Shown piece after piece: positions 1,670 to 14,847 of a stretch of DNA of 64,000 nucleotides. Origin of the DNA: Escherichia phage VEc25; sequence record MW175414.1; one strand, 5' to 3'. The notes beneath the pieces are model-generated. The model worked only from the letters and a program-made list of their open reading frames with translations, was not told the origin of the DNA and ran no database searches. Both the position numbers and the translations under genes were made by a program. Position 1 is the stretch's first letter; each line of letters begins with the position of its first letter.

Positions 1670-1699
1670 AAACCCACCATTACGGTGGGTTTATTTTTT
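1670..1699 (+). terminator. Rho-independent terminator
   Basis: CCCACC/GGTGGG stem then TTTATTTTTT. Confidence 0.6.
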
Positions 1700-1725
1700 G
1701 AAGTTATCTAACACTGGGTATTCCT

Positions 1726-1950
1726 ATGAAAGTAAATGTTTTACGTCGTAAGAAAGTTCCTTTCTTTCAAATCAATTGTGGTTCATGTTTTCAACACGAT
1801 GATGACTACTATATGAAGTGTAGTTATCAATCTAAAGAACACTTCTACGGTGTGAATTTACAAACAGGGCATCTGTTCACATTTGATAATAATGACTTTG
1901 TTTATCCTGTGACTTTAGAAGCATGTATTCCTGACCCACTTAATAAATAG
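1726..1950 (+). CDS. Hypothetical Cys-rich small protein (74 aa)
   Basis: ATG start; CGSC...C...C spacing suggests possible zinc ribbon. Confidence 0.4.
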   Translation: MKVNVLRRKKVPFFQINCGSCFQHDDDYYMKCSYQSKEHFYGVNLQTGHLFTFDNNDFVYPVTLEACIPDPLNK

Positions 1951-1951
1951 T

Positions 1952-2308
1952 ATGGCTCAAGAAAAGAATCGTCGTCAGACACTTATCGAACGTATTCAGG
2001 CCAGAATCAAATTACAGGACTTAGGCTATACCGTTAATGGTCAGCCTAGTCTCTGTCACATCTGGACTGGTTCACATTCAGGTAATGGACGTGGTGGGCA
2101 ATATGGCAGGATTTCCGTGAATGGAGTTACCTCTGCAACTCATATTATTGCCTATACCCATTATCATGGTTATATCCCCAATAAGATGCAAGTAGACCAT
2201 CTCTGTAATAACCGTCTGTGCTGTAACCCTGAACATCTTGAATTGGTTACTCACCAAGAGAACCAGAGAAGAAGGGCTAAGCGTTCTAAATCTAAAGGAA
2301 ATAAATAA
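1952..2308 (+). CDS. HNH endonuclease (free-standing)
   Basis: C-terminal VDHLCNNRLCCNPEHLELVTHQENQRR matches the HNH core (His-Asn...Cys pairs...His). Confidence 0.65.
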   Translation: MAQEKNRRQTLIERIQARIKLQDLGYTVNGQPSLCHIWTGSHSGNGRGGQYGRISVNGVTSATHIIAYTHYHGYIPNKMQVDHLCNNRLCCNPEHLELVTHQENQRRRAKRSKSKGNK

Positions 2309-2479
2309 ATGATTAAAAAACTTATTTGTAAACTTATTGCAGCAATCTTAATTAGTATTATTGGTATTGCATGGGTAATTTCTACGCCAGATAACGTTAT
2401 GCAACAAATTTATTATGCTGTATATACATCAACCTCTTTTGTTTGGGTTTATGTAATGTACCGTATTTGTAGCGACTAA
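2309..2479 (+). CDS. Small membrane protein (56 aa), absent from ORF track
   Basis: ATG at 2309 immediately after HNH stop; MIKKLICKLIAAILISIIGIAWVIS...FVWVYVMYRICSD; two hydrophobic stretches; below 60-aa cutoff. Confidence 0.3.
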   Translation: MIKKLICKLIAAILISIIGIAWVISTPDNVMQQIYYAVYTSTSFVWVYVMYRICSD

Positions 2480-2508
2480 TACTTAATATAGCTTAACTGG
2501 AGAGTAAA

Positions 2509-3567
2509 ATGGCTAGTATTGATTCTATTGCCGTATGTAATCCACGGCAGGTACGTAAATTTGTTGAACACTGTATCCGTTCAGGATTGGTTCCATTTAT
2601 CACTTCATCTCCTGGTATGGGTAAATCTGCAATTGTTCGTCAGATTGCAGAAGATTTTGGCCTGAAACTGATTGACCATCGTCTGTCTACTTCAGCACCA
2701 GAAGACCTGTCAGGTCTGCCTCGTTTTAAAGAAAATGGTCGTGCTGAATTTGCTCCATTTGATGAGCTATTCCCATTGGAAGGGGATGTTGTACCTGAAG
2801 GATTTAATGGCTGGCTTCTCTTTCTCGATGAGTTTAACTCTGCTCGTAAAGAGATTCAGGCTGCTGCTTATAAATTGGTACTCGACCGTATGACTGGTCA
2901 GAAGAAGCTACATCCTTATGTAGCTATCGTATGTGCTGGTAACAAAGCAACTGACCGTGCCATTACTAATAACCTATCTACAGCTATGCAATCACGTCTT
3001 ATTCATCTGGAAATGGAGACTGATTTTGATGTCTTCATGGAAGATGTAGCCATCCCTAATAAGTGGGATGAGCGTGTAATTGCATTCCTGAATGCTAACC
3101 CAAATAAACTGAATGATTTTGAACCAGACCATCAAGAGAAGACTTTCTGTTGTTCTCGTACATGGGAGTTCGTTAACAAGATTGTTTCCATTCTCCCACC
3201 AGGACCAATTAATAGTGAAATGACTCTACTGTTAGCAGGCACTATCACTTCTGGTGTAGCAACATCATTCGTCCAGTTTACTCAGGTCTATAGCAACATG
3301 GTGTCTTTGAATGAGATTTTGGATAATCCTAAGAAAGCTCGTATGCCTGAAGACAATAACCTGTTGTGGGCTGTAGTCACTTCACTGATTAACAATACTG
3401 ACGAAGATAATCATTCGAAAATCTTTGATTACGTTGAACGTATGCCATTTACGTTCAAGGTTTTGTACTACCGTTCCGTAGGTAGTCTGGTTCCAGCTTT
3501 GGTTAAATTACCGAACTGGCGTGTTGCTGCAATCACATTATCTAAATACGTTCATGGTTCCAATTAA
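2509..3567 (+). CDS. AAA+ ATPase, MoxR-like
   Basis: Walker A SSPGMGKSA, Walker B LLFLDEFN; SD GGAGAG. Confidence 0.65.
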   Translation: MASIDSIAVCNPRQVRKFVEHCIRSGLVPFITSSPGMGKSAIVRQIAEDFGLKLIDHRLSTSAPEDLSGLPRFKENGRAEFAPFDELFPLEGDVVPEGFNGWLLFLDEFNSARKEIQAAAYKLVLDRMTGQKKLHPYVAIVCAGNKATDRAITNNLSTAMQSRLIHLEMETDFDVFMEDVAIPNKWDERVIAFLNANPNKLNDFEPDHQEKTFCCSRTWEFVNKIVSILPPGPINSEMTLLLAGTITSGVATSFVQFTQVYSNMVSLNEILDNPKKARMPEDNNLLWAVVTSLINNTDEDNHSKIFDYVERMPFTFKVLYYRSVGSLVPALVKLPNWRVAAITLSKYVHGSN

Positions 3568-3733
3568 TAAGAAGGGAGTTACAGACCTCCTGTATGTTGC
3601 TGGCTTTAACGGTGAAGAAATTACCGTATATGCCTCAAGTCTGGCTGCTGCTAAACAAAAGGCAGTTGAATACTTTCGTCCAAAGAAACGTGTAGCCCAT
3701 ACTATTTGGGTTCATCTCGCAGAGGAAAACTGA
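3554..3733 (+). CDS. Small hypothetical protein (59 aa)
   Basis: ATG at 3554 overlaps the ATPase stop; fills the ATPase-VWA gap; no strong SD. Confidence 0.25.
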   Translation: MVPINKKGVTDLLYVAGFNGEEITVYASSLAAAKQKAVEYFRPKKRVAHTIWVHLAEEN

Positions 3734-3734
3734 T

Positions 3735-4877
3735 ATGTCCATGACAGATGCTCAATTAACCCGTGAATATGACAGATGTCAGGCTAAAGCCTTTATGGGC
3801 AAAACTGCTGCATTCTTTGGTTCACTGTTATGTTCTCTGAAGTTCCGTTGGGTAAAAGATGGCTGTGATACAGCACAAACCGATGGTGAGCATCTCGAAT
3901 GGAATCCTGATTGGTTTGAAAGTCTATTACCTGAATCTCGTGTAACAGTACTTATGCATGAACTATGGCATGTCGGCTTACTGCATTCTGTTCGTATGGG
4001 TTCTCGTGACCCAGAAGTATGGAATTATGCCTGTGATATTTATATCAACAATCAGCTTATTCAGGATGGCTACAGCTTTATAGAAATCGAAAATTGCTGG
4101 AAAGACCTTAAGTATGCTGGTTGGGCTGAAGAACAAATCTATGATGACCTCATGAGCAAACAGATACGTCCTCCTAAAGCATCAGGTGCTTTTGGGACTG
4201 GCTCAGGTGGTGACATGAAACCTTCCACTTCGAAGGCTAGTCAGGTGAATATTGTCAATAATGTAGTAAGAGCCATGCACCAACAGAAACTATCTGGTGG
4301 CTCTTTGCCTGGGGTATTACCTGGAAAAATGGAAGAAGTTATTACTCAATTCCTGAAACCAGTAGTACCGTGGCAGGTTTTACTTGAACGCTTCTTCAAT
4401 GACCTGCAAGAAACTTACTACTCATGGCAACGGCCTAATCGTAGATACCCTGATATGTACCTACCATCTCCTATGGATGATGACGGTAAACTGGAACATC
4501 TGGCTTATTTCCTCGATACATCTGGCTCCATTAAACCTAAAGATGCTTTACGCTTTAGCTCTGAAGTGGCCTATGTAAAAGAGAAATATCAGCCTCAGAA
4601 GATGACTCTAGTTCAGTTCACTACAGAGATTGTAGACGAACAAGTCATTGAAGATGGTGATAAGTTTACTGATGTCACTATCAAAGGACGTGGTGGTACT
4701 AGTCTGGTTCCTGTACGTGAGTGGATTATTAAGCATAAGCCTACTGCTGCCATTATCTTTACTGACTTAGAAGTCAGACCGATGGAGCCATTGCCATTTG
4801 ACATTCCTGTCATATGGGTAGTTATTCGTAACCCTGGTGCACAAGTTCCATTTGGGAAAATTATTAACATTACATGA
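3735..4877 (+). CDS. HExxH metallopeptidase-like plus VWA (MIDAS) domain protein, MoxR partner
   Basis: HELWH zinc-binding-like motif near N-terminus; DTSGS MIDAS motif in C-terminal half; SD GAGGAAAA. Confidence 0.55.
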   Translation: MSMTDAQLTREYDRCQAKAFMGKTAAFFGSLLCSLKFRWVKDGCDTAQTDGEHLEWNPDWFESLLPESRVTVLMHELWHVGLLHSVRMGSRDPEVWNYACDIYINNQLIQDGYSFIEIENCWKDLKYAGWAEEQIYDDLMSKQIRPPKASGAFGTGSGGDMKPSTSKASQVNIVNNVVRAMHQQKLSGGSLPGVLPGKMEEVITQFLKPVVPWQVLLERFFNDLQETYYSWQRPNRRYPDMYLPSPMDDDGKLEHLAYFLDTSGSIKPKDALRFSSEVAYVKEKYQPQKMTLVQFTTEIVDEQVIEDGDKFTDVTIKGRGGTSLVPVREWIIKHKPTAAIIFTDLEVRPMEPLPFDIPVIWVVIRNPGAQVPFGKIINIT

Positions 4878-4883
4878 GGTTTT

Positions 4884-5390
4884 ATGGTTGTTAATGGAAA
4901 ACTATTGTTAGGTGCTATGCCCATTAAGGGCATGGTTAACAGTAAACTCAGTTCAGGTGAGACTACATTTGGACTGGGAGAAGCTGGTTATGACATCCGT
5001 ATTAAACAGGATGTTACCTTCTACCGATTTCTTGGTTTGATTCCCTGCATCAAGATTAAAGATGAAGGAAAGACCAAGTGGAAGTTTGGCACTTTCACAT
5101 TAGCTTCTGCAATGGAACGTTTCAATGTACCTGCTGGCCTAGTAGGTATTGTCCATGACAAATCCACATGGGCAAGGCGTACATTATCTGTATTCAATAC
5201 CGTTATTGAACCAGGATGGTCAGGCTATCTGACTTTAGAACTGGTTTATCACGGTCGTAAAAAACTTCATATCCCTGCTGGTTCAGGTATTGCTCAGGTC
5301 ATCTTCCATGAGACAGTAGAGAATACTGCCTACAATGGGCGATACCAGAACCAGCCTAATCAACCTGTAGCTGCTAAGTCAGCTCGTTAA
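4884..5390 (+). CDS. dCTP deaminase/dUTPase-superfamily enzyme
   Basis: Size and motifs (GYDIRIK..., GWSGYLTLELV) fit the dCTP deaminase/dUTPase beta-clip fold; SD GAGG. Confidence 0.5.
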   Translation: MVVNGKLLLGAMPIKGMVNSKLSSGETTFGLGEAGYDIRIKQDVTFYRFLGLIPCIKIKDEGKTKWKFGTFTLASAMERFNVPAGLVGIVHDKSTWARRTLSVFNTVIEPGWSGYLTLELVYHGRKKLHIPAGSGIAQVIFHETVENTAYNGRYQNQPNQPVAAKSAR

Positions 5391-5403
5391 TTAAGGAAAT
5401 ATC

Positions 5404-5604
5404 ATGTCTATCTTTACTACTAAGGTTAATGGTCAGAAAGTTACTGTTGTTGCTCGTAACGTAGCTTACGTTACTGAAAACAGTGAAGGCCGTGGTGTAA
5501 TTACTTTTACTAACGGTGATTCCATTGATACTCAGGTAGGTTATGACTCTATCCGTCGTAACGTAGCTAAAGCACTTGATGGTGCTAAAGACATCGCAGA
5601 GTAA
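5404..5604 (+). CDS. Hypothetical protein (66 aa)
   Basis: ATG with AAGGAA SD; followed by terminator. Confidence 0.4.
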   Translation: MSIFTTKVNGQKVTVVARNVAYVTENSEGRGVITFTNGDSIDTQVGYDSIRRNVAKALDGAKDIAE

Positions 5605-5679
5605 GGTGTTTACAGTAATGGGGTTATATAGTAGCCCCATTTATGGAAATTCCTTTCTCCATTGCTTAGTCCCAACTAT

Positions 5680-5703
5680 GCCCACTTTATGTGGGCTTTT
5701 TTA
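5680..5703 (+). terminator. Rho-independent terminator
   Basis: GCCCAC/GTGGGC stem, TTTAT loop, TTTTTT. Confidence 0.6.
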
Positions 5704-5960: not shown

Positions 5961-6421
5961 TGACAAGAATACCATTTTTAAAGCCTAGAAAACGAACACC
6001 AAAGCTGTATCAAAAGACTTCAGAAGACGGTTTAGCCTTGAACCAGAAAGCTATTAAGGCCGTTAGTGCACTGGTTCAAGGTAAACAGGATGCTGTTGCT
6101 TTACGTCTTGTTGTTGAGCAAATCTTAGTTGCTCTGACACTGGCTCAAGTAGCTAAACAAGAAGGTAAACAAGAAACCTGTAAAACAGCATTAGGTGCTT
6201 TGTACTGGTTGTATAAAGACCTTGCTGACAACTTTGAAATGTCTATGGATAAGTGGCAGGGCATTTCTTGTGTACTTGCTCTTAGAGAAGGGCAGGAATT
6301 ACTGTCTACTCTACCAAAAGCAGAATTTAAACTAGCCTACACTGGAGCACATAAGATTGTTCTTGGTTCCAGTAAGGACATCTTTAACCACCTCAAGCTA
6401 TTCAAGGCTTTCTATGATTAA
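5960..6421 (+). CDS. Hypothetical protein (153 aa)
   Basis: Track start 5933 is TTG; ATG at 5960 with GGAGAT SD and TGATG overlap with upstream stop. Confidence 0.4.
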   Translation: MTRIPFLKPRKRTPKLYQKTSEDGLALNQKAIKAVSALVQGKQDAVALRLVVEQILVALTLAQVAKQEGKQETCKTALGALYWLYKDLADNFEMSMDKWQGISCVLALREGQELLSTLPKAEFKLAYTGAHKIVLGSSKDIFNHLKLFKAFYD

Positions 6422-7355
6422 TGCAAAAATCCTCGCTGATAGTATTACTCTTTCTGGTGACCGCCTGGTAACAATGGAACTGGTTTATCCGCGTTTCATT
6501 CATTCAGAATTTATGACTCACCGAGCACTTAATCGTAATGCTTCCAGTAGTCGTGCTATTCCTACCCAACGCCTTATTGAGCAAGTTCGCAATGAACCAG
6601 TAATGCCAGTACATTGGGGTAAGAACCAGAAAGGAATGCAGGCAAGTGAAGAACTCACTCCTATGGAGATTAAGGATGCTGAGTTCATTTGGGAAAATGC
6701 TGCCTCTGCTGCTGCTGTATATGCTGAACAACTTCGTCGCGGACAAGTACATAAGCAGATTGTTAATCGTATTCTGGAACCATTCACGCATATCCGTGTA
6801 GTAGTGACAGCTACTCAATGGAATAACTTCTTTGGTTTACGCATTCATCCCGATGCTCAACCAGAGATTTGTGAATTGGCTACTAAGATGAAGGAACAGT
6901 ATGACCAATCAAAACCCCGTACCCTGTTGGCTGGGGAATGGCATTTGCCGTACATTACTAATAGTGATTACCTCGATGCTTACGATTATTGCAAACATCA
7001 ACGAATTACTCGTGATGAACCAAGTAGTGATGAGATTAATTGCCTGTTAGTAAAAATCTCTGCTGCTCGTTGTGCCCGTGCTTCCTATAACAACTTTAAA
7101 GGTACTCCTTCTACTATCGAAGAAGACCTGCGTTTGTTCTCTAAATTGGTTGAAAGTAAGCCTGTTCACGCAAGTCCTACTGAACATCAAGCAACTCCTC
7201 AGCATGTAATGAGTAAAGGCTTAAATGAGCCTACTGACCCATCTACATGGGAAAATGGCATTAGCCACATGGACAGAAATTTACGTTTATACTCAGGTAA
7301 TCTATGTGGCTGGATTCAATTCCGTAAGCTGCTTGCAGATGAATGCATCCACTAA
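6414..7355 (+). CDS. Flavin-dependent thymidylate synthase (ThyX-like)
   Basis: Track start 6357 is TTG; ATG at 6414 overlaps upstream stop (ATGATTAA); motif HRALNRNASSSRA resembles the ThyX RHR-x7-S signature (first Arg is Thr). Confidence 0.5.
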   Translation: MINAKILADSITLSGDRLVTMELVYPRFIHSEFMTHRALNRNASSSRAIPTQRLIEQVRNEPVMPVHWGKNQKGMQASEELTPMEIKDAEFIWENAASAAAVYAEQLRRGQVHKQIVNRILEPFTHIRVVVTATQWNNFFGLRIHPDAQPEICELATKMKEQYDQSKPRTLLAGEWHLPYITNSDYLDAYDYCKHQRITRDEPSSDEINCLLVKISAARCARASYNNFKGTPSTIEEDLRLFSKLVESKPVHASPTEHQATPQHVMSKGLNEPTDPSTWENGISHMDRNLRLYSGNLCGWIQFRKLLADECIH

Positions 7356-12646: not shown

Positions 12647-12713
12647 GTAGGTTAACTATTCAAGTAGCTCCGGTTGAAATATACTGGAGCTATCTTTGAA
12701 GAGGATACATACT

Positions 12714-13109
12714 ATGGCCAAAGTTTATCGTGCTAACCGTAAAGCCCATGATGACGATATTATTCGTATGAATGCAGTCGGTTTATCATTGGGAACCATT
12801 GCTAAAACATTAGGTGTTCACCCCACTACAGTTACCTTACGATTACGCTCTCTTGGTATTGAACCAACCGACACACGTCGAACATTTATGGAGAACGTAC
12901 TAGCACCATTACCTACTCACGTAGCTGATTGGTTATCAGAACAAGTAGGACCAAAGTATGAGATTCGACAATACGTTCGAGACTTATTACTGGAAGCCTA
13001 CAATAATCGTCATAATCATAAGGAAACTGCTCATGAACGATTCCTCAAAAGATACGTTGGTACAAACTCAGAACTGGTTTCTGAAGGCAGTACCCAACCC
13101 AACGAGTAA
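12714..13109 (+). CDS. Helix-turn-helix DNA-binding protein
   Basis: Track start 12696 is TTG; ATG 12714 with GAAGAGGA SD; HTH-like segment VGLSLGTIAKTLGVHPTTVTLRL. Confidence 0.45.
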   Translation: MAKVYRANRKAHDDDIIRMNAVGLSLGTIAKTLGVHPTTVTLRLRSLGIEPTDTRRTFMENVLAPLPTHVADWLSEQVGPKYEIRQYVRDLLLEAYNNRHNHKETAHERFLKRYVGTNSELVSEGSTQPNE

Positions 13110-13527: not shown

Positions 13528-14847
13528 ATGTATAAAAGTACTACTAAGCTGCCACTAAATCCTGGTCAAGAGGCAGCGGCAGAAGGCTTCTTCGACTTTC
13601 TGCTCGACCCCAATGCTTCTGAACTTCGTATTAGTGGACCTGGTGGTACAGGCAAGACATTTACAATGGCTCATATGATTGACGAGATTATGCCCCGTTA
13701 TCATGAGACATGTAGTCTGATGGGAATCCCTGCTCTCTATAACGAAGTTATTATGACTGCTACTACTAATAAGGCAGCAGAAGTATTAGCCCGTGCAACA
13801 GGGCGTCCTACGTCTACCTATCATTCCTTTCAAGGTCTGACAGTACGGAATAACCTAAAGACTGGGGAAGCAGACCTGATTCCGTCTAAGTCCTTCAGTA
13901 TCAAAAAGAATAAGGTCATTTTTATTGATGAAGCATCAATGATTGACCGTAAACTGAAGAAGTTTATTAACGAAGGTACTCACCAAAGTAAGATTGTTTA
14001 CTTAGGCGATAAATGCCAATTGTTACCTGTAAAGGAAACTTCTTCACCTGTCTACAATGACAGTAGCATTAAAGAGTTTATGCTGACCCAGCAGATGCGT
14101 ACTGATGTCCCTGAACTCCATGCACTGCATGAACAGCTTCGTGGAACCATTGAAGGTAAGCACGGATTCCTGCCTATTAAAGCAGTTCCGGGTATTATCG
14201 ACTGGATTGAAGATGGTGATGAAATGAGAAAAGAAGTCAAAGGTCATTTCATGACTAAGACTGACACTCGTATTGTTGCCTATACCAACCAACAGGTTGT
14301 TAACTATAACACCTTCATTCGAGCCATGAATGGATTCCACGGAGAGTTCTGTATTGGTGAAGAGTTAGTAAGTAACTCTGCTATTCAGATTGGTGCTGGT
14401 GACCGCCTCAGTATTGAACAGGAATGCCAGATTGTTGACCAGGATTCTGCTACTCGTAAGATTCTGATTGATTCCTCTGGCATCGAATTAGAAGTACGTG
14501 ATTGCACCCTGGATACTGGTTATGGTGGTGTCTTTGAAGGTATCCCTATTCCGGTAGATATGGATTATTTCATTCGTTTGCAAAAGTACTATGCACACCA
14601 AAAGAACTGGGAACGTCACTTCTATTTGAAAGAAACATTCCCTGAACTTCGAGCATTACATGCTTCTACTGTGCATAAGTCTCAAGGTTCTACCTACGAC
14701 ACCATCTTTATTGATGCTACTGATTTATCTACTTGCCGTCAGCCTGATGTAGTAGCACGTCTGCTTTATGTAGCAGTATCTCGTGCTCGTCATCGTGTTG
14801 TGTTCTATGGCTCTTTGGCAGAGAAATTTGGTGGTCTGGTTCGCTAA
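13528..14847 (+). CDS. SF1B DNA helicase (Dda/RecD-like)
   Basis: Walker A GPGGTGKT, Walker B VIFIDEASM, C-terminal VHKSQGSTYD and YVAVSRARHRV helicase motifs. Confidence 0.75.
   Translation: MYKSTTKLPLNPGQEAAAEGFFDFLLDPNASELRISGPGGTGKTFTMAHMIDEIMPRYHETCSLMGIPALYNEVIMTATTNKAAEVLARATGRPTSTYHSFQGLTVRNNLKTGEADLIPSKSFSIKKNKVIFIDEASMIDRKLKKFINEGTHQSKIVYLGDKCQLLPVKETSSPVYNDSSIKEFMLTQQMRTDVPELHALHEQLRGTIEGKHGFLPIKAVPGIIDWIEDGDEMRKEVKGHFMTKTDTRIVAYTNQQVVNYNTFIRAMNGFHGEFCIGEELVSNSAIQIGAGDRLSIEQECQIVDQDSATRKILIDSSGIELEVRDCTLDTGYGGVFEGIPIPVDMDYFIRLQKYYAHQKNWERHFYLKETFPELRALHASTVHKSQGSTYDTIFIDATDLSTCRQPDVVARLLYVAVSRARHRVVFYGSLAEKFGGLVR

Follow-up and report, generated by a model that had tools for sequence, protein, structure and literature searches.

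The 64,000-nucleotide stretch of Escherichia phage VEc25 (MW175414.1) analyzed here, referred to below as the window, belongs to a close relative of coliphage N4 (genus Enquatrovirus, family Schitoviridae), with a nucleotide identity across positions 2300-5000 of 97.7% to N4 and up to 99.4% to other isolates. Two open reading frames (ORFs) in this region, 2509-3567 and 3735-4877, are N4 gp24 and N4 gp25, respectively, and both lie on the plus strand, as do the small ORF, the motifs, and the transcription unit described below. The gp24 gene encodes a 352-amino-acid AAA+ ATPase of the AAA_5/MoxR-like group, and gp25 encodes a 380-amino-acid protein in which a zincin-like region (residues ~1-145) is followed by a linker (~146-250) and a von Willebrand factor A (VWA) domain with a metal ion-dependent adhesion site (MIDAS; ~251-380). 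As a sequence family, the pair is not new, since Pfam and PHROG models exist and its members were listed between 2009 and 2014 as 'AAA ATPase' and 'vWFA'. In 2014, gp24 ('unknown') and gp25 ('vWFA domain') were counted as two of the 14 core genes across 25 N4-like phages (PMC4193335), and the pair has been recorded with the function 'unknown' in roseophages and in Sinorhizobium and Delftia phages (PMC2784036, PMC6992544, PMC5735904). The GenBank notes for N4 describe gp24 and gp25 as 'similar to S. coel. protein 1/2', and the searched literature gave no published function for the family, a catalogued but uncharacterized MoxR-VWA variant.

Between the two genes lies an ORF of 59 amino acids (3554-3733), which the initial annotation had also pointed out. 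Its ATG at 3554 overlaps the end of gp24 by 14 nucleotides, its TGA (3731-3733) stops one base ahead of the gp25 ATG, and a GAGG sequence 5' of the gp25 ATG was read directly from the junction. The ORF is a real gene, matching phrog_19202 (E=5e-33), annotated in some relatives (AL25 and PMBT57) and not in the N4 RefSeq record, syntenic in loci L005, L083, and L084, and translationally coupled between gp24 and gp25. It is nevertheless an accessory gene outside the conserved core, found in 32 phage records versus 573 for gp25, with 17 of these 32 in other genera at 44-56% identity.

Terminator-like hairpins on the plus strand at 1670-1692 and 5680-5696 flank the genes gp21 to gp27, with none comparable between them. 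A terminator scan returned 15 sites versus 5.9 expected, with these two hairpins among the strongest, and the AL25 record has terminators annotated at the equivalent positions. The genes gp24 and gp25 are therefore probably co-transcribed with gp22 (HNH endonuclease) and gp26 (dCTP deaminase) in a unit comprising gp21-gp22-gp23-gp24-small ORF-gp25-gp26-gp27 (1670-5696). In N4, gp24 and gp25 belong to the middle transcripts, which precede the late genes (PMC4193335, citing Kazmierczak and Rothman-Denes 2005).

Conserved motifs of gp24 and gp25

The gp24 product matches phrog_1297 (E=1e-135), and its conservation was assessed in 31 phage homologues down to ~52% identity and in 48 bacterial homologues at ~25-35% identity. 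The Walker A and Walker B motifs that had been read from the DNA in the initial annotation are both present and conserved in the two sets. In Walker A (S33-S-P-G-M-G-K-S40, 2605-2628), P35, G38, K39, and S40 are invariant in the phage sequences, and G38 and K39 occur in 48/48 bacterial sequences; in Walker B (L103-L-F-L-D107-E108, 2815-2832), D107 and E108 are invariant in phages, D107 is found in 48/48 bacterial homologues, and position 108 is E or D in all 48. The region 2935-2997 extends from a candidate sensor 1 (A143-G-N145) to a candidate arginine finger (R163, within S162-R163), R163 being taken for the finger by analogy with the 'DRF' motif of MoxR. R217 (3157-3159), within the motif T-F-C-C-x-R217-T-W, is a candidate sensor-2 arginine, in a region that may be equivalent to the MoxR 'SPRA' motif. 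These three motifs, whose roles are assigned from position and analogy, are invariant in the 31 phage homologues, in which R150 is also nearly invariant, and N145, R163, and R217 are each present in 48/48 bacterial sequences. Judged from its sequence, gp24 therefore has a complete conserved AAA+ catalytic set and is apparently active.

The AlphaFold model of gp24 (predicted local distance difference test score, pLDDT, 85; predicted template modeling score, pTM, 0.76) contains an AAA+ core with extra strands after β2 and before sensor 1, the core and lid occupying residues ~1-230 and being followed by a conserved 110-residue helical C-terminal domain. Strands 132-134 and 138-145 of the model make up a pre-sensor-1 β-hairpin (residues 132-145) ahead of N145, and a helix-2 insert is represented by short strands at ~72-73 and 79-80, between β2 and β3, where the pLDDT is only ~62. 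In a structure search, midasin (14.5), dynein (14.2-13.2), CbbQ (14.0), and NorQ (13.3) ranked above HslU, RFC, and Lon (≤12.4). The gp24 product is thus an AAA+ ATPase of the AAA_5/MoxR (helix-2-insert) group, and the earlier designation 'MoxR-like' holds in this broad sense only: no match to Pfam AAA_3 (PF07726, MoxR proper) was obtained, and the score against Pfam AAA_5 (PF07728), 21.9 bits, misses the cutoff of 22.0 by 0.1 bit. The gp24 sequence also grazes Pfam AAA, and some of its homologues (P0197 and P0202) score above the AAA_5 cutoff.

The N-terminal region of gp25 matches Pfam DUF2201_N (PF13203, 'putative metallopeptidase domain'; E=1e-85), and its C-terminal region matches DUF2201 (PF09967, 'VWA-like'; E=2e-46); HELWH and DTSGS do occur in one partner protein, at H75-H79 and D261-S265, as had been annotated. 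Conservation was followed in 31 phage sequences (to ~50% identity), 69 bacterial homologues (27-33% identity), and 150 non-redundant representatives. The zincin motif H75-E-L-W-H79-V-G-L-L-H84 (HExxHxxxxH, 3957-3986) is invariant in the phage sequences. H75, H79, and H84 are present in 69/69 bacterial homologues and E76 in 61/69, and among the representatives H75 is found in 144, E76 in 138, and H79 in 142. A motif as short as HExxH turns up by chance in many proteins, and the initial annotation had regarded its absence from homologues as a sign of a chance match; its conservation in the phage, bacterial, and representative sets instead indicates a functional motif. The eight bacterial loci without E76 (L011, L023, L025, L034, L043, L044, L056, and L081) have the motif H[TIL]VMHxxCxH and keep the three histidines and the MIDAS, and seven of them are two-gene loci without room for a middle gene.

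Downstream of HExxH lies a second zincin motif, N97-Y-A-C-D101 (4023-4037), in which N97 and D101 are invariant in phages and present in 69/69 bacterial sequences and which may be the source of the third metal ligand. Canonical class-1 inteins, with Hint and Intein_splicing domains, interrupt two gp25 homologues of the representative set (P0244 and P0250) at one and the same position, exactly between A99 and C100 of N-x-A-C-D, with the junctions (marked by slashes) '...WNDA/C...VVHN/CDYVINN' in P0244 and '...WNFA/C...VVHN/CDIRINN' in P0250. Inteins characteristically sit in functionally critical motifs of important proteins, and their insertion here therefore suggests that N-x-A-C-D is part of the active center of gp25.

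A profile of the gp25 N-terminal domain built from 20 phage and bacterial sequences was compared with the sequences of PDB entries, and the top match was the M48 peptidase 3c37 (E=9e-4), which aligns with the same HExxHxxxxH signature. Weaker matches were obtained to the minigluzincin MJ1213 (4qhf, E=0.024), an HtpX homologue (3cqb, E=0.024), BepA (6ait and others, E ~0.07), and Ste24 (4il3, E=0.65). Among the 20 single N-domain sequences, 15 matched Pfam Peptidase_M48 and 14 matched SprT-like, the SprT-like and WLM matches being far under the Pfam thresholds. By these sequence comparisons, the N-terminal domain of gp25 appears to be a zincin related to the M48 and SprT-like peptidases.

The C-terminal domain has a Rossmann-like VWA fold with a complete MIDAS (DxSxS, T, D). 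Its residues D261, S263, G264, and S265 (D261-T-S263-G-S265, 4515-4529), T322 (in G-G-T-S), and D344 (in F-T-D-L; 4698-4766 from T322 to D344) are all invariant in the 31 phage sequences. The metal-binding residues, including T322 and D344, are present in 69/69 bacterial homologues, with G264 in 68/69, and among the representatives, D261, S263, and S265 occur in 150/150, T322 in 148/150, and D344 in 149/150. The model of gp25 (pLDDT 81) has two domains of good prediction quality and, between them, a linker (~190-250) of poor quality. In the variable, disordered part of the protein around residues 143-165 (window ~4161-4229), D160 of the sequence 'GGDM' is invariant in the 31 phage sequences and present in 141/150 representatives, the linker having no reliable alignment to bacterial homologues; possible roles for this residue are as a MIDAS ligand from within the protein or as a site of processing or self-cleavage.

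Homologues of gp25 commonly bear the label 'HNH endonuclease' in RefSeq and Pharokka-style annotations, which evidently derives from the name carried by phrog_1314. A Pfam search of gp25 detected DUF2201_N and DUF2201 only and no HNH or His-Me finger domain, and the true HNH_3 domain of this region is in gp22 (window 1952-2308). The label on gp25 genes is thus wrong and needs correction; the intein-bearing members P0244 and P0250 might be a possible source of it.

Pairing, carriers, and related systems

Relatives of gp25 are numerous, with at least 573 confirmed by a pattern scan in bacteria and archaea, each species represented by one genome, and 587 in a scan of viral contigs. A search of 1.84 billion representatives with a hidden Markov model of the gp25 family found 21,604 clusters (defined at 50% identity) at E≤1e-3 and 5,195 at E≤1e-30. 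Linkage to the ATPase was counted in loci for which 3.5 kb or more of sequence was available upstream, with the ATPase located by tblastn and the neighbors in high-GC bacteria taken from a crude ORF caller. A gp24-like ATPase lies within 5 kb of the gp25-like gene in 57/61 bacterial and 58/63 viral loci (115/124 together), and where found it is always upstream and, in all but one case, on the same strand. The co-occurrence of the two genes across related phages, on which the initial annotation had staked its interpretation, therefore holds, both in these loci and among the 14 N4-like core genes.

The phage carriers extend beyond the N4-like group. Genes resembling gp25 occur in 573 isolated-phage records, mostly N4-like, and genes resembling gp24 in 818; the other carriers of gp25 include Asteriusvirus jumbo phages (A4 and phAPEC6), the PA5oct-like Paride, Vequintavirus, and a cyanophage. 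In Asteriusvirus A4, the gp24 and gp25 homologues are adjacent and co-oriented, and in the Vequintavirus 'nom' they are divergent and 3.7 kb apart. Directly upstream of the gp25 homologue of nom is a gene annotated as 'anti-sigma factor' (346 amino acids; L163, MN850646.1, 3861-4901), which was considered as the ATPase and rejected. It has no Pfam match, and the true gp24 homologue is nom_3, on the opposite strand. In addition, gp25-like genes were found in 66 plasmids, of which 29 are predicted to be conjugative.

In bacteria, the pair is in most cases accompanied by a third gene of ~283-315 amino acids, present in 50/61 bacterial loci and only 19/63 viral loci. This gene usually lies between the other two, and the order ATPase-D-VWA, with D for the third gene, was found in 42 loci. 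Two of the five copies tested match Pfam DUF3150, one above the curated cutoff and one weakly; no relatives of this DUF3150-like gene were found among PDB sequences or PHROGs, and no copy is present in the 64-kb window at E≤10. The possibility that the 59-amino-acid ORF of the window is a remnant or analogue of this third component was considered and rejected, as the ORF belongs to a small family of its own, confined to some of the N4-like phages, and shows no link to that component. The neighbors in the bacterial loci include VirB4/TrbE, a VirB11-type ATPase, TrbL/VirB6, TraI_2, ThiF of the PRTRC system, and PRTRC_E, as well as RNase H, Sipho_Gp157, a DUF4942 methyltransferase, a RecD-like helicase, and a weak Mom-like match below the curated cutoff. 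In the conjugative Burkholderia pseudomallei plasmid NZ_CP009155, for example, the ATPase/DUF3150-like/VWA trio lies directly upstream of a type IV secretion system (T4SS) operon on the same strand. The module in the inspected loci therefore travels on phages, integrative and conjugative elements (ICEs), and plasmids.

Two loci from cellular assemblies have N4-like gene content. In Mesorhizobium yinganensis CN2-181 (locus L004; contig2, 432974-450110 of 727 kb), an N4-like gene order inside a bacterial contig comprises gp24, gp25, dCTP deaminase, a ThyX-like gene, and homologues of window ORFs 12696-13109 and 13528-14847, at 36-54% amino acid identity; this is an N4-like element that has integrated, unusual as that would be for a lytic family, or else an assembly chimera. 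In the 17 kb examined of locus L003 (JANQNF010000027.1, 69,347 bp), the order of genes matches that of the window from gp18 to rIIB, with identities of 36-71%; the contig is the genome of an N4-like phage that was placed in an archaeal metagenome-assembled genome.

Several characterized systems share part of this architecture. CbbQ-CbbO (Rubisco activase) and NorQ-NorD (nitric oxide reductase maturation) likewise combine an AAA_5-type MoxR ATPase with a VWA/MIDAS adaptor, and RavA-ViaA, CoxD-CoxE, BchI-BchD, and CobS-CobT are further MoxR/chelatase-VWA pairs. The clients of CbbQ-CbbO and NorQ-NorD are specific metabolic enzymes encoded nearby, and to our knowledge, neither CbbO nor NorD has a peptidase domain; gp25, in contrast, is much shorter, has a zincin-like domain at its N-terminus, and is carried on mobile elements. 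The AAA modules of midasin (Rea1/Mdn1) and dynein have the same fold as gp24, but midasin is a single eukaryotic polypeptide of ~5,000 amino acids with six fused AAA modules and no protease, whereas gp24 is single-module and would have to oligomerize. Among the M48 peptidases, HtpX and Ste24 are embedded in the membrane, BepA is a membrane-associated protein of the periplasm, and a Glu in an ExxxD-type motif serves as third ligand; gp25 differs in having N97-x-A-C-D101 at the equivalent place and in its fusion to a VWA domain. No Pfam-detectable membrane or export domain was found in gp25, for which no transmembrane or signal-peptide prediction was made.

Wss1/SPRTN with Cdc48/p97, an AAA+-assisted zincin system that removes DNA-protein crosslinks, and ArdC of conjugative plasmids offer an analogy only. 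Wss1/SPRTN similarly joins a small zincin to an AAA+ unfoldase, and the gp24/gp25 module rides on DNA-transferring elements; gp24, however, belongs to a different AAA+ clade from Cdc48, and no DNA-binding domain was detected. A parallel in organization is provided by the VMAP, iSTAND, FtsH, and beta-propeller vWA-MoxR ternary conflict systems (Kaur et al. 2020, PMC7159879), in which a MoxR-vWA core acts with a third protein, resembling the trio of ATPase, DUF3150-like protein, and zincin-VWA protein in the 50 bacterial loci. Those systems place their effector domains C-terminal to the vWA domain and serve host defense in multicellular prokaryotes, whereas the gp25 family has its zincin at the N-terminus, a DUF3150-like third gene, and mobile elements as carriers. 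The N-terminal M48-like zincin, the mobile carriage, and the DUF3150-like third gene in bacteria thus set gp24/gp25 apart from the characterized MoxR-VWA members known to us.

Proposed mechanism and competing explanations

With moderate confidence, gp24 and gp25 can be regarded as a two-component, ATP-driven protein-remodeling and processing machine of the MoxR/AAA_5-VWA kind, produced from one middle-phase transcript. By analogy with CbbQ-CbbO, NorQ-NorD, and midasin, gp24 would form a hexameric ring on which one or a few gp25 molecules would dock, the MIDAS-bound Mg2+ of gp25 would grip an acidic side chain of the client, and ATP hydrolysis would pull on or reshape that client; a general mechanism of this type has been described for MoxR-vWA systems (PMC7159879). 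The fused zincin could then cut the exposed segment of the client, either as the goal of the reaction (inactivation or maturation) or for its release. Since the module is common to N4-like, jumbo, and Vequintavirus phages and to conjugative elements, the client is more likely to be a generic protein of the host, or one bound to incoming or replicating DNA of mobile elements, than an N4-specific one, and in most bacterial copies, the DUF3150-like third protein, which N4 does not have, is probably an adaptor or a substrate. The 'chaperone-like' function given in the initial annotation was inferred; its placing of the pair among the MoxR-VWA systems is supported, and the conserved catalytic glutamate E76 and the M48 homology point to predicted proteolysis instead of, or besides, metal insertion or chaperoning alone. 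Of the parts of this scheme, the two-protein ATP-driven machine itself is far better founded than either its proteolytic step or the kind of client it acts on.

Several observations weigh against the machine as outlined. In 8/69 bacterial homologues, which all come from a single Desulfobacterales/Thiotrichaceae clade, T, I, or L stands in place of E76, so that at least one lineage can dispense with catalysis but not with the metal-ligand histidines. H84, N97, and D101, all invariant, are alike candidates for the third zinc ligand. The zincin fold of gp25 is indicated by profile matches only, both structure searches having returned only VWA matches, and the gp24 score stays marginally below the AAA_5 cutoff. 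We know of no characterized MoxR-VWA system that uses a protease, and the literature retrieved on the gp24/gp25 family consists of genome-annotation papers, with no functional or essentiality data for any member. Sequence searches of gp24 and gp25 against the PDB gave nothing meaningful, NCBIfam gave no matches, PADLOC gave none for gp24, gp25, or the small ORF at E≤0.01, and N4-like phages do not appear in two phage Tn-seq preprints.

The clade that has lost E76 but kept the histidines would suit a chaperone for metal-cofactor insertion like NorQ-NorD, CoxD-CoxE, and CobS-CobT, in which the HExxH...H/D site of gp25 would hold a metal for a client metalloenzyme without any cleavage. Such a role is unlikely, as E76 is kept in 31/31 phage, 138/150 representative, and 61/69 bacterial sequences, the domain is homologous to active M48 and minigluzincin peptidases, and no metalloenzyme is a consistent neighbor across the phage, ICE, and plasmid contexts. 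At the other extreme, the HExxH motif, which is short and frequent by chance, might be fortuitous and the two genes accidental neighbors forming no module at all, a notion to which the sub-threshold AAA_5 score of gp24 lends itself. It is refuted by the conservation of the motif in the 31 phage, 69 bacterial, and 150 representative sequences and by the linkage in 115 of the 124 informative loci. A sub-case of the scheme favored here is an establishment or counter-defense device that destroys a host protein, for example a defense factor or one bound to DNA, which would block foreign DNA on its entry or replication. The inspected carriers, which are mobile elements or similar contexts (the 573 phage records, the 66 plasmids, and ICE-like loci), are consistent with it, as are the T4SS, PRTRC, RNase H, Gp157, and weak, below-cutoff Mom-like genes of the ICE-like loci. 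Counter-defense genes are usually variable accessory genes, which counts against this device. Although expression ahead of the late genes in N4 would fit it, the pair is a strictly conserved core in N4-like phages of many host genera (PMC4193335), and with PADLOC also returning no matches, counter-defense is a somewhat unlikely purpose.

The pair might also serve as an assembly chaperone or maturation protease for a large DNA-translocating structure, acting on virion or ejection proteins in phages and on the type IV secretion apparatus in conjugative elements. The trio in NZ_CP009155 is co-oriented with and directly upstream of a VirB11/B2/B3/B4...TraI/TraD operon, T4SS genes recur near the Paraburkholderia copies, the pair in Asteriusvirus A4 is flanked by 'structural protein' genes, and roseophage RPP1 has a second structural module near its gp24/gp25 homologues (PMC4193335). 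In N4, however, the pair are middle genes between nucleotide-metabolism genes, and the five virion proteins named for this phage (gps 52, 54, 56, 59, and 67) exclude gp24 and gp25 (PMC4193335). With the acidobacterial and Desulfobacterales copies also having other neighbors (RNase H, Gp157, and PRTRC), a function in assembly is decidedly unlikely. Within the two-component machine favored here, a more far-reaching and tentative proposal is that the gp24/gp25 family represents a previously unrecognized class of ATP-dependent protease carried by mobile elements, which would combine a VWA-MIDAS receptor, an AAA_5 unfoldase ring, and an M48-like zincin blade and would serve N4-like, jumbo, and Vequintavirus phages and conjugative elements alike in removing one conserved host or DNA-bound protein that hinders the establishment or replication of foreign DNA; this is possible, at odds well short of even.

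Other genes of the window and significance of the family

Some further features of the window lie outside the gp24/gp25 pair. On the upstream side, the gp21-gp27 unit is adjoined by gp20 (827-1663), which encodes an SPFH/Band 7 protein (Pfam E=2e-23) named 'lipoprotein' in N4 and 'serine protease' in AL25 and which ends at a bidirectional terminator-like hairpin (1669-1693). The gp30 gene (6357-7355) encodes a ThyX-type thymidylate synthase that is divergent, Pfam Thy1 matching only part of it (1.8e-10) and phrog_85 scoring 9e-111, with the listed ORF starting at a TTG upstream of the annotated N4 start. The cumulative GC skew of the window peaks near 28 kb and declines steadily thereafter, a course consistent with the layout of N4-like genomes, in which the early and middle genes run rightward and the late genes leftward.

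The genes gp24 and gp25 are among the N4-like core genes without an assigned function, and the pair is not specific to N4, as its family, with more than 21,000 clusters, is found on several phage lineages, ICEs, and conjugative plasmids, with strongly constrained catalytic residues. Should the module prove to be a protease driven by an AAA+ ring and equipped with a MIDAS receptor, it would be a new architecture among ATP-dependent proteases and would point to a common host-takeover or DNA-establishment step of phages and conjugative elements. If the family is indeed a protease class with which these elements remove one conserved protein, two of the 14 core genes of N4-like phages would define a shared, essential, and druggable step in the biology of mobile elements.

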